Source of the DNA: an archaeon GW2011_AR10
Lineage (GTDB): Archaea; Iainarchaeota; Iainarchaeia; Iainarchaeales; GW2011-AR10
Length of the DNA: 64,000 nt
Assembly (NCBI GenBank): GCA_000830275.1
Contig: CP010424.1
Location: forward strand, 1,071,311 to 1,135,310
Reading direction: 5' to 3'
Both the position numbers and the translations under genes were made by a program. Positions 50,409 through 58,003 of this stretch are shown here, one piece after another (the first letter of the stretch is position 1; each line of letters begins with the position of its first letter). The notes under the pieces are model-generated. The model ran no database searches and was not told where the DNA came from. It saw nothing but the letters and a program-made list of their open reading frames with translations.

Positions 50409-50496
50409 ATTTTTATATAGGGGCTTCTACCCTTTTTAAGTGTTTCATTTTGTTAAGTCAACTGCTTTACAATTCCTTTCCCCAAAAATCGCGGTT

Positions 50497-50612
50497 AAAT
50501 GTGCCTTGCGGCACAGCCTTTTAAAAAAAGGCTGGCGAAAATGTGGCTTCGCCGAAGCCTTTTAAAAAAAGGCTGGCGAAAATGTGCCTTGCGGCAAAAC
50601 CTTTTTATAGCA
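50497..50612. repeat. Tandem ~41-bp hairpin repeat (family 3: GTGCCTTGCGGCAC / AGCCTTTTAAAAAAAGGCT / GGCGAAAATGTG)
   Basis: ~2.5 direct copies. Each unit contains two hairpins, one with a palindromic CCTTTTAAAAAAAGG stem-loop. Lies in the divergent promoter region. Confidence 0.75.
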
Positions 50613-52538: not shown

Positions 52539-54698
52539 TTGATTCGAATGAAAAAATTTTTTTCACAGTTGTTTGTGCTGCTTTTTCTGGTTTTTTTTAT
52601 TCCGTTCGTTGCTGCACAGGACTGCACTATTAAGCCAAGCTGCCTTGCTTCAGAGTTTGCAGTTTTCTCTGTTCCAAGCACAACAAATGCTCACGCGTCA
52701 ACCGCTGTTTCTGGTGCAGGCTCTTACTCCAATAAAGTCTGCTGCCCGTCCTCCGAATTTTCGGGCAACAGCTGCAGTGATCCAAATAAGGACGTTGCCC
52801 TGAACCTTTACAATGCAATGAACTCGCATGTAGAGCAGGATGGTTTGGGCAATTACTTTAATCCCGTTTGCCTTACTGCTGCAACGCAAGTAACCTGCTG
52901 GTACACAAGCGATGATTGTTCTGTTGCTGATGGTGTTGGAGTTGCAAGCATCTGGGATGGGCTCTGGGAAACAGGGGATGCAATTCAAATCACTAACGCC
53001 CACGTTGAGCAATACAATGGCTCGGGCAATTACCCGATAAACGTTTGCTGTTCTGCTTCGGCTCCCTCAACTGATGTTTGCGGTGACGGAACCGTTTCAG
53101 GCACAGAGGTTTGTGATCCTGCCCAAACTCCTGCAGAAATTGCGGCAATCTGCGGTGCAGGCAACGTCTGCGTTCCAGCTGGCCTTGCAACTGAATGCAC
53201 TTGCAATGCGCCTCCGATAGTGCAAATCATTGCACCTCCTGATGGGGCATCGTATGACATTGATGATGACATGCCCGTGTTGTTTGAAGGAACTGTAAGT
53301 GATATGGATGATGGCACAATATTTAACAGGTTTAATCCTCCTCCTCTTGGAAGGGTTGTGTGGCAGTCAAGCCTTGAAACAGTTGACGGCGGTTTCTTTG
53401 GTTGGGATGCCTTGTGGTTTGAGCGCCAGTTAACAAAAGTCGGAACACACACAATAACCCTTTATTACACTGATTCTGAGGCAGCGCAGGCAAGCACTAC
53501 TGTTGACATCACTGTTTCGCAGTGCAGCGATGGAGCAGTTACAGGAGATGAAGAATGCGACATTGGCGGCATTAGTGGCGCGCCAGCCGTTGCATGCACG
53601 AACCCGGTTCAAACATGCAACCTTGACTGTGAATGTGTTTCAGGCCCTGCAACCCCAACATGCAATCTTTCAGTATCAGATAACACTGTCGGCCCCGGGG
53701 ATTCAGTAACAGTTGACGTTTCATTGGACGATTTTTCTACAAATCCTACTACATTTGGCAGCGTTTCATGCGGTGATGCTGCCTCATATGAAGCAGACTT
53801 TTCCTGTACCGGCAACAATTGTTCCTTTTCCTGCGGCCCTTACTCAGCCAATGGAACAATAGAGAATTTGCAGTTGAATGATGGCGTAACAACTGTAACT
53901 TGCAGTGGCGCGGTTGATATTAGTGTAGGCTCTCCAAGTGTGCCTTCGTGTTCAATTTATGCAATCCCCACAACAGTTGCTTCCGGTGGAAATGTTCTTG
54001 TAACTTTCATTTACTATGATTTCTCTGCAACCCCAAGCTTTTTAGGAATTGATTGCGGCAATGGCGCAACCCCAAGCTCCTTTAATTGCGCACCAACGTG
54101 CTATCTTACCTGCGATTCTTACTCAACCAATGGAACAATTGAGAACGCGGTTTTAAGTGATGGCGGAACCTCTGTTAACTGCGCAAACTCATATAATATT
54201 ACTGTTTCAGGCGGCCCCGGTCCAGGGCCTGCAGGAGATATTTGGGGTGTGAAGCTTTTGGCAAGCGATGATTACAATTCTTCGTCAAACTTTAGGGTAA
54301 TGGTTAGCATTACAAATTTTTCCACCGCACAAAAAGACGCTGATATTACTGTGCAGCTTGTTGACCACTTAAGCGGGCTGCCTCTTTCTCCAGCAATAAC
54401 TGCAACAAAAACCATGCTTGTTGCCGGAAACAGCTCTACGCTTGATGTGGAATTCATTGAAGCAGATTTCTCTTCACCAATTCTTCCGAGAAATTACAGA
54501 GTTGTTGCTTCCGTTCCTGCCTACAATGATGGCATAACAATTGAAACTGTTATCGGAAACAATACTGATAGTAAAGTTGTTGTTGTCGGCGAGGCAAAGG
54601 CTGTTGCAATTTCCGAGCTGCCTTTGGAGCTTGTTGCAGTCATAGCTTTGGTTGTTTTAAGTATTCTTGGCGGTGCAGTTCCAGCCAAAAAAAATTGA
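52539..54698 (+). CDS. Large Cys-rich cell-surface protein with C-terminal TM anchor
   Basis: Signal peptide MKKFFSQLFVLLFLVFFIPFVAAQ; an internally duplicated Cys-rich domain (CTGNNCSFSCGPYSANGTIENLQLNDG / CAPTCYLTCDSYSTNGTIENAVLSDG); C-terminal hydrophobic helix then KKN. Confidence 0.6.
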   Translation: MIRMKKFFSQLFVLLFLVFFIPFVAAQDCTIKPSCLASEFAVFSVPSTTNAHASTAVSGAGSYSNKVCCPSSEFSGNSCSDPNKDVALNLYNAMNSHVEQDGLGNYFNPVCLTAATQVTCWYTSDDCSVADGVGVASIWDGLWETGDAIQITNAHVEQYNGSGNYPINVCCSASAPSTDVCGDGTVSGTEVCDPAQTPAEIAAICGAGNVCVPAGLATECTCNAPPIVQIIAPPDGASYDIDDDMPVLFEGTVSDMDDGTIFNRFNPPPLGRVVWQSSLETVDGGFFGWDALWFERQLTKVGTHTITLYYTDSEAAQASTTVDITVSQCSDGAVTGDEECDIGGISGAPAVACTNPVQTCNLDCECVSGPATPTCNLSVSDNTVGPGDSVTVDVSLDDFSTNPTTFGSVSCGDAASYEADFSCTGNNCSFSCGPYSANGTIENLQLNDGVTTVTCSGAVDISVGSPSVPSCSIYAIPTTVASGGNVLVTFIYYDFSATPSFLGIDCGNGATPSSFNCAPTCYLTCDSYSTNGTIENAVLSDGGTSVNCANSYNITVSGGPGPGPAGDIWGVKLLASDDYNSSSNFRVMVSITNFSTAQKDADITVQLVDHLSGLPLSPAITATKTMLVAGNSSTLDVEFIEADFSSPILPRNYRVVASVPAYNDGITIETVIGNNTDSKVVVVGEAKAVAISELPLELVAVIALVVLSILGGAVPAKKN

Positions 54699-54742
54699 GC
54701 TACTGCGCGTAGAAGTGAATTTAAAGGCTCCTTGAGAATGCG
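54651..54742. repeat. Direct repeat copy 1 (~92 bp) flanking the TA cassette; includes the 3' end of the surface-protein gene
   Basis: ~94% identical to 55582-55673. Confidence 0.8.
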
Positions 54743-54795
54743 CTGCCGGCAAATCAAGACAAATAATTTTAAATGCATTTGTATACAATTGTAAT

Positions 54796-55284
54796 ATGTT
54801 TGTTTCAAACACTTCAACCCTGATACTGCTGGCAAAAGTTGATTTGCTGGGCCAATTCATTGAAAATTTTGGGAAAATCGAGATAACTGGAGAGGTAAGC
54901 AAAGAGTTTTCTGCAAAAGATTCTTTTGATGCAAAATTTATAAGCCGCTTAATTGAAGAGAAAAAAGTAATCGTCAAAAAAGCGGAGAGTAACATGGTTT
55001 CTGGTATTTTGATGGAGTTTTCCTTGGATAAGGGCGAGGCAACGGCGTTTGCATTATTTAATGAAAAAAGGCACAAAGCAATTTTGACGGACGACTATGA
55101 ATTAATAAAACTGTGCATGCTGAGGGAAGTACAGTTTCTTTCTGCAATGGCAATAGTTGTCAGAATGAAAGAAAAAAAGATTTTGAGCAAAGAAGAAGCC
55201 CTGCAAAAAATCAATGAATTAAACTCTTATGGGCGATATTCAAGAGAGTTGCTCGATTTTTACGTTTCGGAGGTGAAAAAGTGA
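54796..55284 (+). CDS. PIN-like nucleic-acid-binding protein (DUF3368/COG2405), putative toxin
   Basis: VSNTSTLILLAKVDLLGQF N-terminus matches the DUF3368 start (vvDtS.LIaLakig.LdLL). Confidence 0.55.
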   Translation: MFVSNTSTLILLAKVDLLGQFIENFGKIEITGEVSKEFSAKDSFDAKFISRLIEEKKVIVKKAESNMVSGILMEFSLDKGEATAFALFNEKRHKAILTDDYELIKLCMLREVQFLSAMAIVVRMKEKKILSKEEALQKINELNSYGRYSRELLDFYVSEVKK

Positions 55285-55568
55285 GAACTACATCAGTAAG
55301 ATTGGAAGAACCGGAATCGGTCACGGCTTTTCAGAAAGTCCTAAAGGAAAAAAAATCAGAAGTGTTGCGGCAGCTAATAGAAAAAGGCCGCAAGGCAAAG
55401 TCGCTGGAATTGTTCAAGCAAAAAAAAGTATCCCTCGGCCTTGGAGCAAGACTGGCAGGTTTAACAGTAAGCGGGTATTTGGACCTATTGGAAGAAAACA
55501 GGATACCGCTAAACCTTTCCAGACGAGAAGCACAAAAAGCATTAAATACTGCGAGAAAAGTAATGTAA
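55281..55568 (+). CDS. UPF0175-family antitoxin-like protein (COG2886)
   Basis: VSLGLGARLAGLTVSGYLDLLEENRIPLN matches the UPF0175 core (isLgkAAelAGms..eF..lL.e.gIp). Overlaps the upstream gene by 4 bp. Confidence 0.55.
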   Translation: MRTTSVRLEEPESVTAFQKVLKEKKSEVLRQLIEKGRKAKSLELFKQKKVSLGLGARLAGLTVSGYLDLLEENRIPLNLSRREAQKALNTARKVM

Positions 55569-55581
55569 GCCATATCCAAAG

Positions 55582-55673
55582 GTTGTTTTAAGCATTCTTG
55601 ACGGTGCAGTTCCAGCCAAAAAAAATTGAGCTACTGCGCGTAGAAGTGAATTTAAGGGCTCCTTGTGAGTGCG
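55582..55673. repeat. Direct repeat copy 2 (~92 bp) flanking the TA cassette
   Basis: See copy 1; ends at the orc1 upstream region. Confidence 0.8.
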
Positions 55674-55719
55674 TTTCCGGTGCAAGCCTTTTAATCTTCT
55701 TCCGACAATATTTTTTTTG

Positions 55720-56850
55720 ATGAAGAAAAACATTTTTGAGCGCTCCGGCAAGGAGAAGCAGGTTTTTAAGGATGAAAAGTACCTTTACCCCGAGTTTGTG
55801 CCGGAGAGGCTTCCGCACCGTGACAGGGAAATTGATGCGCTAGTGTATGGCTTTAATCCTTTGGTTAAGGGGGGGAAACCGCACAACTTTTTTGTTGTCG
55901 GGCCAACAGGCGTTGGAAAAACTGCCTGCGTGAAGTATGTTTTGAATGAGCTGCAGGAATACAGCGACAGGGCAAAAGCCCTTTACTTGAACTGCTTCGA
56001 GTTCAATGCAAGGCACGCAATTCTCTCCAAAATAGCGAATTTTTTGGGCGCTCCTGTTCCAAGGCGCGGGATTGCAACAGATGAAATTTATTCGAGGTTC
56101 CTTGAGGCCTTGAAGAAGGCTGATTTTTCCCCAGTAATTGTTTTGGATGAAGTTGACCAGCTTCTTTTGAAGGCTGATGGGTCAAAGCTTTTGTATGATT
56201 TGCTGCGCGTAGTGGAGTATGAGAGGGCAAGAGTTGCCTTGGTGCTTATTTCGAATGACATTGAGTTGACAGCAAAACTTGATTCCCGCGTGAGGAGCTC
56301 CCTCACAGAGGAAAAAATTGTTTTTGAGTCCTACACTCCAGCGCAGTTGAAGGACATTCTGCGCGAGAGGGCATCCTTTGCTTTTTTGTCTGGGGCACTT
56401 GGAGAGGAAGTAATACCTGTTGCTGCAGCTCACGCCGCAAGGCTTGGGGGAGACGCAAGAATTGCAATTGAATCCTTGTTGAAGGCGGGAAGGGAAGCAG
56501 AGAAAGAGAATTCCGGCAAAGTTGAAGTGAAGCACTTGAAAAAATCTTTTGAGTCAGTTGATGCGGTTTCTTTGCTGAAAGGAATTAGGCACTTGAATGA
56601 AAGCGAGGCACTGCTGCTTAAGCTTATTGCTGAAAAGCCCGGCATTTTTTCCGGGGAACTGTTCAAGGCCTTTGGCGGGAAAACTGAACCGCTTTCAGAG
56701 AGGAGGCTCCGCGATCTGTTGAATGGCTTGGAGAAAAAAAACTTTGTTTTCTCAGAGCAAGTCAGCCTAGGCAACAAGGGCAAAACAAGAAGTTTTTCGT
56801 GCAGGCTTCCAAGAGAGCCACTAATGCGGGAGCTTAACCGAAACCAATAA
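55720..56850 (+). CDS. cdc6: Orc1/Cdc6 replication initiator
   Basis: FVVGPTGVGKTACVKYVL Walker A, VLDEVD Walker B, C-terminal winged helix. Start placed at ATG 55720 (MKKNIFERSG...) rather than the upstream extension that runs into the repeat. Confidence 0.85.
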   Translation: MKKNIFERSGKEKQVFKDEKYLYPEFVPERLPHRDREIDALVYGFNPLVKGGKPHNFFVVGPTGVGKTACVKYVLNELQEYSDRAKALYLNCFEFNARHAILSKIANFLGAPVPRRGIATDEIYSRFLEALKKADFSPVIVLDEVDQLLLKADGSKLLYDLLRVVEYERARVALVLISNDIELTAKLDSRVRSSLTEEKIVFESYTPAQLKDILRERASFAFLSGALGEEVIPVAAAHAARLGGDARIAIESLLKAGREAEKENSGKVEVKHLKKSFESVDAVSLLKGIRHLNESEALLLKLIAEKPGIFSGELFKAFGGKTEPLSERRLRDLLNGLEKKNFVFSEQVSLGNKGKTRSFSCRLPREPLMRELNRNQ

Positions 56851-56897: not shown

Positions 56898-57713
56898 ATG
56901 GCAAAAACCTATAAGAGGTCTGCAACTAGGGCCCTGAAAAAGCAGATAAAATCCCTGAAAAAAGAGGGCACAAAAATTAAGTCAAAGACCTCAAAGCTTG
57001 ATGTTGAGCTGAAGAAGCTGAAGGACGGCCTCGAAAAGCTTAAGGGGAAAGGCGTGAAGAAAAAACAGCTTTCGAGGTACAACTTGTTCATTCGTGACCA
57101 GCTGAAGAAGGGCAGGACATTTGTTCAGGCAGTGCGGCTTTGGAAGAGAGCCGAGAAAGCAACAAGGGTTTTAAGAAAAAAGCCAAGCACAAAAAGCAAA
57201 ACAGTGAAGCCAAAATCAGTTCCCAAAAAGAAATCAGCAGGCCATAAAACCGCCAAAAAAGCAAAAAGCAGTAAAGCGAAAACAAAGCCTGCCAGGAAAA
57301 AAATAACTAAAAAGGTTATAAGAAAGGTTAAGGTTCCAACTGTTATTACAAAGTTTAAGCCAAGGATAATTGAGAAAGATGTTCTTTCCAAGGAAAAAAT
57401 TGACCAGATTGTTTCAAGGCTTGACGAAAAACAGAAATCAATGATTGACTCAATAATGTTGCAGATGAAGTATCCAAAACAAGCAATGGTTTCTGAAAGC
57501 GCGGTTGTTCCATCAGATGAGGAAATCGCGATAAAACTCACGAGGCTTTACTTCCGAGAAATAGCTCAACTCGGATTTAAGCGCGGCCTAGAGCTTGATG
57601 CAATAATCAATGCTTACCTTTACTCTCTTGCAAGAGTGCAGAGGATGGGCTTTGAAAGCCAAGAGATAATTGACGCAATAAGAAAATCGGAGATAAGCAG
57701 GAAAGCGTTTTAG
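56898..57713 (+). CDS. Lys-rich DNA-binding-like protein with C-terminal paralogous domain
   Basis: A histone-H1-like K-rich region; the segment LSRYNLFIRDQLKKGRTFVQAVRLWKR loosely resembles an HMG box; the C-terminal ~45 aa are shared with the next ORF. Confidence 0.4.
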   Translation: MAKTYKRSATRALKKQIKSLKKEGTKIKSKTSKLDVELKKLKDGLEKLKGKGVKKKQLSRYNLFIRDQLKKGRTFVQAVRLWKRAEKATRVLRKKPSTKSKTVKPKSVPKKKSAGHKTAKKAKSSKAKTKPARKKITKKVIRKVKVPTVITKFKPRIIEKDVLSKEKIDQIVSRLDEKQKSMIDSIMLQMKYPKQAMVSESAVVPSDEEIAIKLTRLYFREIAQLGFKRGLELDAIINAYLYSLARVQRMGFESQEIIDAIRKSEISRKAF

Positions 57714-57724
57714 GGGGCGGTTAA

Positions 57725-58003
57725 ATGGAGAAAAAAAATTCTTTGTCGGATGAAGAGGTTGCATTTGAGATTGTGAAGCTTTACTTTGAGGAAATAGCAA
57801 GGCTTGGCTTTAAGAGGAGCCTGGACCTTGATGCAATAATCAATGCTTACTTTTACACAAACGAAAGGCTGAAGAACAAGAGCAAGGACTTGGAAGAAAT
57901 AAGGAAAAAGGTTTTAGAGGAAGAGAGAAAGCTTGCAACCGAAACAAAAGAAGAGCTTTTCCCAAGCCTTGAGGAATTAAAGCAAAAACTTGGGGATGCC
58001 TAA
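57725..58003 (+). CDS. Small protein sharing the VKLYFEEIARLGFKRSLDLDAIINAYFY domain with the upstream gene
   Basis: A 24-bp identical DNA stretch (57593-57616 vs 57827-57850). Confidence 0.4.
   Translation: MEKKNSLSDEEVAFEIVKLYFEEIARLGFKRSLDLDAIINAYFYTNERLKNKSKDLEEIRKKVLEEERKLATETKEELFPSLEELKQKLGDA

Follow-up and report, generated by a model that had tools for sequence, protein, structure and literature searches.

We analysed a 64-kb stretch of the genome of the DPANN archaeon GW2011_AR10 (Iainarchaeia/Diapherotrites), called the window below and used for all coordinates unless a contig is named. The subject is a two-gene cassette, a predicted type II toxin-antitoxin (TA) module, that lies directly upstream of the replication-initiator gene orc1/cdc6 and is bracketed by a long direct repeat. 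On the + strand the gene order is p231, the gene for a 716-amino-acid (aa) surface protein, open reading frame 1 (ORF1), ORF2 and orc1/cdc6 (Table 1). The 831 nucleotides (nt) between the two repeat copies (54750-55580) contain a putative promoter/operator, a PIN-fold gene and a UPF0175 gene and nothing else. The stop codon of ORF1 and the GTG start of ORF2 overlap by 4 bp (GTGA). At the other end, 40 nt separate the second repeat copy from the ATG of orc1, and a TATA-like element of orc1, CCTTTTAATC, sits just beyond that copy.

Table 1. Features of the locus in the window, followed by the TA modules found directly upstream of orc1 in Iainarchaeia (L numbers denote contigs other than the window).
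Feature	Position	Strand	Basis and remarks
Surface-protein gene, 716 aa, secreted/anchored	52548..54698	+	Listed ORF and called gene; repeat copy 1 holds its last 16 codons and the stop
Direct repeat copy 1	54650..54749	+	Functional surface-gene 3' end (54650-54698) and 51 nt downstream
TATA-like element ATAATTTTAAATG, cassette-borne	54763..54775	+	About -30 from ORF1 ATG
Palindromic operator-like site TGCATTTGTATACAATTGTA	54774..54793	+	16/20 self-complementary; abuts ATG; core TGTATACA at 54780-54787
ORF1, 162 aa, PIN-fold DUF3368-like putative toxin	54796..55284	+	Predicted fold, Foldseek, family alignment, PADLOC
ORF2, 95 aa, UPF0175 (COG2886) helix-turn-helix (HTH)-type putative antitoxin/autorepressor	55281..55568	+	GTG start; Pfam, PADLOC, pairing
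Direct repeat copy 2	55581..55680	+	Non-coding relic of surface-gene 3' end and the same 51-nt downstream stretch
orc1/cdc6 replication-initiator gene	55720..56850	+	TIGR02928 301.6 bits, Cdc6_lid, AAA_22; ATG 55720 called in all assemblies
DUF3368-like PIN pair	54796-55568 (AR10 window)		Upstream of orc1
VapBC-type PIN pair	L024:5257-5834		Upstream of orc1
VapBC-type PIN pair	L118:7259-7847		Upstream of orc1
ParE pair	L020:5417-5889		Upstream of orc1; bracketing repeat 20 nt, 40 bits
MazF/PemK pair	L025:5027-5549		Upstream of orc1; bracketing repeat 30 nt, 44 bits

The direct repeat and the segment it encloses

The two repeat copies are identical at 93/100 nt with a spacing of 931 nt. The seven mismatches lie at repeat positions 13, 21, 76, 86, 89, 94 and 96, and the longest perfect run is 54 nt (54671-54724). 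A 53-nt core (54672-54724 and 55603-55655) has exactly two matches in the window, compared with none expected from 100 shuffles. When a cassette-sized gap was slid over the window at 155 positions, the real cassette scored 145 bits and the runner-up 32 bits. All independent same-species assemblies retrieved that span the site, including a 1.24-Mb genome, have an identical arrangement with the same seven differences between copies, and because of this identity the repeat is not an assembly artefact. These data confirm that the direct repeat is real and that it did not arise by chance or in assembly.

Copy 1 is translated as VVLSILGGAVPAKKN followed by a stop, and this is the true C-terminus of the surface protein. 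Translation of copy 2 gives VVLSILDGAVPAKKN and a stop, from the same codons with one Gly-to-Asp change. Because a TAA closes this frame eight codons upstream, copy 2 is a dead relic of the gene end. The initial annotation, made from the sequence alone, had described 92-bp direct repeats of ~94% identity, the first containing the stop codon and 3' end of the surface gene and the second lying just upstream of orc1. These repeats fall within the 100-nt repeat reported here, both positions are correct, and the two genes, with the PIN-like gene first and a 4-bp overlap, are arranged as it described.

We looked for structure and motifs in the repeat itself. Single-strand folding of the DNA, for either strand of either copy, was no better than that of shuffled sequences (z -0.6 to +0.9), and Rfam gave no match for the repeat copies. 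The two direct copies had no inverted partner in the window, and a short core motif was neither enriched nor clustered near orc1. The segment between the copies has a GC content of 37.5%, lower than the window as a whole (43.1%) and either flanking gene (46-47%), and this low GC, measured on a short segment, is consistent with a foreign origin. Pfam annotation of the same-species contigs contained no integrase or transposase within ±6 kb of the insert.

A predicted PIN-fold/UPF0175 pair and its control region

A structural model of ORF1 (AF2; 47-sequence alignment) had a pLDDT of 95.5 and a pTM of 0.89. When this model was compared with the PDB using Foldseek, the top 38 matches were all PIN or PIN-like proteins (PAE2754, AF0591, VapC20, SMG6 and Nob1 among them), with a best E of 2.9e-4 and TM values of up to 0.64. 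At the level of the predicted structure, this confirms that ORF1 belongs to the PIN-domain-like superfamily. No sequence-level link of ORF1 to solved structures emerged from the single sequence or from the family profile, and the PIN assignment therefore has the predicted fold as its basis. Close and distant relatives of ORF1 scored 7.5-18.7 bits against the Pfam DUF3368 model PF11848.13, in the expected C-terminal region, and the cutoff of this model is 27.3 bits. A precomputed PF11848.14 annotation, which carries no weak flag, and the UniRef name both make ORF1 a DUF3368 domain-containing protein.

The motifs of ORF1 are SNTST, in which Asn5 replaces the first catalytic Asp, E37, G80-E81 and D99-D100. 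In the family alignment E37 is nearly invariant, and E81, D99 and D100 are invariant. At position 5 (codon 54808-54810) the window protein and most members of the DPANN clade have Asn, and a few members have Asp. This conserved substitution suggests that nuclease activity may have been altered or lost under selection. COG2405 proteins have between two and five conserved acidic residues and a variable active site (Matelska et al. 2017, PMC5499597). A nuclease activity of ORF1 is plausible, not assured.

ORF2 matched Pfam UPF0175 (PF03683) over residues 36-86 with 31.3 bits (E 1.7e-7; cutoff 27.9). Both proteins also matched the two component models of the PADLOC system PDC-S70, ORF1 at 1.6e-14 and ORF2, against the partner model, at 1.3e-5. 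The initial annotation had named the pair DUF3368(PIN)/UPF0175. The UPF0175 part holds above the Pfam cutoff and the PIN fold is confident, but the DUF3368 threshold was not reached with PF11848.13. It had also pointed to the toxin-first gene order as reversed. This order is present at the locus, but it is the norm in the clade: in 70 of 80 related loci the PIN gene is followed directly by a UPF0175 gene, in none is it preceded by one, and for this reason the order is not special to the locus.

The cassette family is large, with ~3,700 cluster representatives at E ≤ 1e-3, and its control region is recognizable across members. A TATA-like element occurs in 35/56 unique cassette upstream regions, usually near -30. 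The family consensus is GAAAG(G/A)TTTAAATA at about -31, and its counterpart in the window is ATAATTTTAAATG. A palindrome centred on GTATAC, TTACAnTTGTATACAAnTGTAA, ends at the ATG and has the same position in 34/56 unique cassette upstreams. Bacterial-type members have TTGACA/TATAAT instead of the TATA element and keep TTACA...TGTAA. We suggest that the TATA-like element acts as the promoter, and its location about 30 nt from the ATG would then give a leaderless or near-leaderless transcript. The UPF0175 protein probably binds the palindrome and would thereby regulate its own operon.

Several hallmarks of type II TA modules are seen here: adjacent, co-oriented small genes, a conserved pair and a conserved palindrome in the promoter region. 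Judged from sequence, the predicted ORF1 and ORF2 proteins would be expected to act as toxin and antitoxin. We found no experimental paper on a COG2405/UPF0175-type pair in the literature searched. Pairs of COG2405 (DUF3368, PIN-like) and COG2886 (UPF0175) are established predicted type II TA pairs (Makarova et al. 2009, PMC2701414; PMC5499597). Like the pair at this locus they consist of a PIN protein and a UPF0175 HTH protein encoded by co-oriented, overlapping genes, and they are mostly archaeal and cyanobacterial. Unlike them, ORF1 and its relatives score below the DUF3368 threshold (0-18.7 compared with 27.3 bits), mostly have Asn for the first Asp and belong to a uniformly toxin-first clade. 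VapBC modules (a PF01850 PIN protein with an AbrB or ribbon-helix-helix partner) are similar in having a PIN-fold toxin, a small DNA-binding partner and a compact operon, and in structure ORF1 comes closest to VapC proteins. By contrast with VapBC, where the antitoxin comes first, the locus is toxin-first, its antitoxin belongs to another fold family, ORF1 has no sequence match to PF01850 in Pfam and its acidic tetrad is incomplete. PDC-S70 is a candidate phage-defence system only and we know of no defence phenotype for it. Nothing at the locus bears on defence.

Probable insertion with duplication of the target

We compared the 700 nt upstream with the 700 nt downstream of 80 related metagenomic cassettes, using a threshold of 30 bits. 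Bracketing direct repeats above this threshold were found at 14 of 50 testable loci, the window included, which correspond to 12 of 41 independent sites. Controls gave 0/150 for mismatched flank pairs and 0/66 for shifted pseudo-cassettes of the same contigs, none of them above 26.3 bits, and 1/154 pseudo-cassettes in the scan of the window exceeded 30 bits. The excess of 12/41 sites over 1/220 positional controls was highly significant (Fisher p = 6e-10). Repeats of the sibling cassettes were 19-442 nt long and their sequences were unrelated between sites; the two copies are 96-100% identical at L057, L074, L044 and L043. The repeat-positive loci (13 loci, 12 sites) enclose 823-1202 nt, which is the cassette alone. 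At eight or more of these loci one copy includes the 3' end of a flanking gene that is intact (upstream and co-directional, or downstream and convergent), and the other copy is a fragment, as at the window locus. One cassette lineage (86-91% identical; L055/L068, L051/L053 and L063) occupies three sites and has three different repeat pairs there, as would be expected if each insertion duplicates its own target.

At the window locus itself we compared 19 GTDB genomes, with orc1 identities of 48-64%, and the two nearest metagenomic genomes (68-70%). The AR10 cassette was present at orc1 in 0 of these 21 related Iainarchaeia genomes, which keep the order HTH, tm112, (tm289), orc1, ..., GTPase. 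In none of them does the surface gene lie upstream of orc1, and because they also lack this gene they are not exact empty sites. The closest cassettes, at 77-80% aa identity, sit in other contexts, one of them (L038) beside a NAC gene. At the nucleotide level the window cassette is homologous to L038 from the TATA element, 8-10 nt past copy 1, as far as the stop codon of the UPF0175 gene, which lies 12 nt short of copy 2. These limits indicate that the mobile unit runs from promoter to stop codon (~815 nt) and is closely bracketed by the repeats. No member of the cassette family was found in viral contigs or plasmids (IMG/VR, PLSDB). From this comparative evidence we infer that the cassette is a horizontally acquired, self-contained type II TA unit.

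We consider it probable, at about 70%, that the repeats in the window originated when the cassette was inserted with a long target duplication. The initial annotation had proposed that a cassette was integrated here, and this is supported indirectly by the relic in copy 2, the cassette-free relatives, the homologues elsewhere and the recurrence of repeats at 12/41 sites. Its reading of a repeat-flanked TA cassette inserted beside orc1 is thus supported as essentially right.

In such an insertion the cassette would have entered a short stretch spanning the surface gene's 3' end, directly upstream of orc1, and the event would have duplicated ~100 bp of target DNA. Most likely, a linear or circular cassette would have been joined to DNA ends left by breaks staggered ~100 nt apart and the gaps then filled in; a template switch during replication would be an alternative route to the same arrangement. 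Copy 1 would keep the 3' end of the surface gene and copy 2 would leave orc1 with ~90 nt of native upstream sequence and its own TATA-like element. Because the target was duplicated, neither neighbour would be harmed in this gene-dense genome. An addictive TA pair would then counter-select loss of the insert by recombination between the repeats, and an insert protected in this way could have lasted until the copies had diverged by 7%.

Several observations weigh against insertion with duplication. No empty site, in which the surface gene is followed directly by orc1, was found in the searchable collections and contigs; every same-species contig that spans the site carries the cassette with both copies unchanged, and the nearest non-identical orc1 is 70% identical and belongs to a genome without the surface gene. 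For lack of an empty site, insertion with duplication at this locus is deduced, not observed. The sole attempt at an empty site for a sibling used L044, a young sibling insertion, and L128, the only other contig with its flanking protein. L128 is 99.9% identical to L044:2279-3032 through repeat copy 1 and the cassette-type B recognition element (BRE)/TATA. It then switches inside the left operator half-site, after TTACA, to a ferredoxin-like gene, and the other side diverges too. This mosaic contig could be either a chimeric assembly or a real recombination breakpoint in the palindrome, and it is not clean evidence. Repeats are absent from 29/41 sites, which could mean either that repeats have decayed or that many insertions leave none. 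All seven mismatches fall outside the 54-nt perfect core, towards the repeat edges, a pattern that is mildly non-random (P about 0.03) and could reflect recombination or gene conversion between pre-existing homologous sequences, not simple drift after duplication. Lastly, nuclease toxicity of ORF1 is not assured because Pfam PF11848.13 gives no match to ORF1 and because Asn occupies the position of the first catalytic Asp.

The distribution of mismatches would also fit a Campbell-type integration. Here a small circle with the cassette and a ~100-bp copy of the target would have entered by a single homologous crossover, the repeats would be hybrids like attL and attR instead of products of fill-in, and one source of the circle would be repeat-repeat excision in another cell of the same population. 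A crossover inside the core, between slightly diverged copies, fits the edge-confined mismatches and the perfect core (P about 0.03), and repeats that are locus-specific and variable in length are predicted, as observed. Yet the first gain of each new piece of target is left unexplained, as for the one lineage with three repeats at three sites. Among the same-species assemblies examined there are neither hybrid or alternative repeat variants nor a cassette-free allele, and no viral or plasmid carrier of the cassette family was found. We regard this route as unlikely. It is doubtful, too, that the repeats are the attL and attR of a larger, integrase-bearing virus or plasmid that entered the 3' end of the surface gene and was later deleted down to its TA module. 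TA modules are frequently the last survivors of decayed elements, which speaks for this origin. So does the general knowledge that integrative elements often target gene 3' ends and bring a replacement end (discussed in PMC2853133). But only 831 nt remain between the repeats, no recombinase gene lies within ±6 kb, and the same precise decay would have been needed many times, at 13 loci (12 sites) that all retain only the cassette (823-1202 nt). Repeat lengths of 19-442 nt are also unlike fixed att sites, and the cassette had no matches in viral contigs or plasmids.

The position of copy 2 directly upstream of orc1 raises the question of whether the repeats are functional elements kept for their own sake, such as Orc1-binding origin boxes, regulatory sites of orc1 or integron attC sites. 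The repeat core contains GTTCCAGCC(A)8, which we take to be loosely like the cores of archaeal origin boxes, and a perfect core could reflect constraint. However, half of copy 1 is coding and copy 2 repeats those codons and the stop; there are just two copies, both direct, neither has an inverted partner, and the motif is not clustered; no significant fold or Rfam match was found; and the repeats of sibling cassettes are unrelated. Moreover, the core was not seen upstream of orc1 in the cassette-free relatives examined, and candidate origin-like 41-nt repeats lie elsewhere, at 50473-50605. We find such a function barely credible. Of its specific forms, an attC-like or otherwise structured element was rejected because the repeats fold no better than shuffles, are site-specific, contain host coding sequence and have no integrase nearby, and origin recognition box (ORB)-type repeats were rejected because there are two direct copies, half coding, with a core motif that is not clustered.

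Insertion with target duplication can also be extended to a general proposal, to which we give only a slim chance: promoter-to-stop TA cassettes of DPANN archaea might be minimal mobile elements that enter without a recombinase, leave long and variable target duplications and accumulate preferentially upstream of orc1, by the route that was put forward in 2000 for restriction-modification units. In the boldest form of this proposal, the PIN-fold protein, a relative of structure-specific nucleases, and its HTH partner might act at the palindrome at the left end of the cassette and aid their own insertion, and would then be more than a toxin and an antitoxin.

The footprint has a counterpart in bacterial restriction-modification (RM) systems. 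Insertion of RM gene units with long target duplication was reportedly described by Nobusato et al. in 2000 (Gene 259:99). 'Insertion with long target duplication' is the term that Kobayashi's group uses for such insertions of RM units in Helicobacter and other bacteria (Furuta, Abe & Kobayashi 2010, PMC2853133; PMC3874152). Their repeats are long (tens to hundreds of bp), variable, locus-specific and unique in the genome and can overlap the 3' end of a neighbour, and no mobility gene is present (PMC2853133). This case was shown with true empty sites and in bacteria only, no archaeal case having passed the screen, and its authors proposed a contribution from DNA breaks made by the restriction enzyme (PMC2853133). 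The locus resembles these insertions in that repeats of more than 30 bp (here 100 nt) surround an insert of less than 20 kb (831 nt) with a complete gene unit, in that no mobility gene lies within ±6 kb and in that the repeat has two copies in the window. It differs in its TA cargo, its DPANN host, the lack of an empty site and a PIN toxin that is no obvious break-making equivalent.

A limited search of the literature found only one other TA module with such repeats. This is a ParE/ParD-like module of Microcystis aeruginosa that lies between two identical 152-bp direct repeats (Klemencic et al. 2021, PMC7935541). As at the window locus, a chromosomal TA pair is bracketed by long direct repeats and lies downstream of an unrelated gene, but the Microcystis repeats have internal inverted repeats and begin past the upstream stop codon, and they concern one cyanobacterial locus with no family-wide analysis. 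Integron cassettes are similar in that they have one or two genes, often encode TA pairs and are bounded by repeats of 60-140 bp. Their attC sites are hairpin palindromes borne by the element and need IntI, whereas the repeats described here are target-derived, partly coding, site-specific and unfolded.

Taken alone, the locus is an ordinary acquired TA module, and both the type of module and the type of insertion were already known. What it adds is statistically solid evidence for long target duplications around archaeal TA cassettes across a whole family. A footprint of this kind, with empty sites, had been documented only for bacterial RM units, and its mechanism was never worked out. The cassette family, with many independent junctions of different ages and with sharp ends from TATA box to stop codon, is suited to inferring how the joining occurs. 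A rule may be suggested in which repeat-flanked inserts are soon lost by recombination unless their cargo is addictive, and resistance of addictive cargo to loss would account for such repeats being seen with RM and TA units in particular.

Some sibling loci bear on later movement of the cassettes. In L083/L085, L104/L105 and L051/L053, near-identical cassettes (95-100%) lie in contigs with flanks that diverge on one side or that include additional genes. Between L083:3937-4850 and L085:2262-3177 homology stops precisely where the short bracketing repeats have their outer edges. There are hints here that the repeat-plus-cassette unit may move or be exchanged as a whole.

Other modules and genes around orc1

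In 5 of 21 Iainarchaeia genomes a TA module occupies the position directly upstream of orc1, and these modules represent four toxin families (Table 1). Two of the four modules other than that of AR10, the ParE and MazF/PemK pairs of L020 and L025, have significant bracketing repeats (control maximum 26 bits). The VapC PIN proteins of L024 and L118 are identical at 53/123 positions, and the VapBC module of L118, the closest relative, had no significant bracketing repeats at orc1. The position next to orc1 may be an insertion hotspot for TA modules. Such an apparent hotspot beside a replication-initiator gene adds to the value of the locus.

A different set of repeats lies 5 kb upstream of orc1. 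At 50473-50605, in the 248-nt gap between the divergent genes tm112 and tm289, there are three to four repeats of ~41 nt with the palindrome AGCCTTTTAAAAAAAGGCT, and near 50-52 kb the window's cumulative GC skew reaches its lowest value. These may be part of a replication origin or may be other regulatory repeats.

The surface-protein gene has no Pfam match, and its translation ends in a hydrophobic anchor followed by a KK tail. Internal repeats with a period of 279 nt (53827-53903 compared with 54106-54182, 74% identical; also 54525-54548) suggest that the protein may contain tandem domain repeats. Because it has no Pfam match and no homologue beside orc1 in the relatives, the gene may itself be a recent or fast-evolving arrival in a variable region.

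Downstream of orc1 are genes for proteins of 271 aa (56898-57713) and 92 aa (57725-58003), neither of which has a Pfam assignment. Their C-terminal parts are paralogous, each gene matches the homologues of the other in relatives, and the pair is kept downstream of orc1 across Iainarchaeia.

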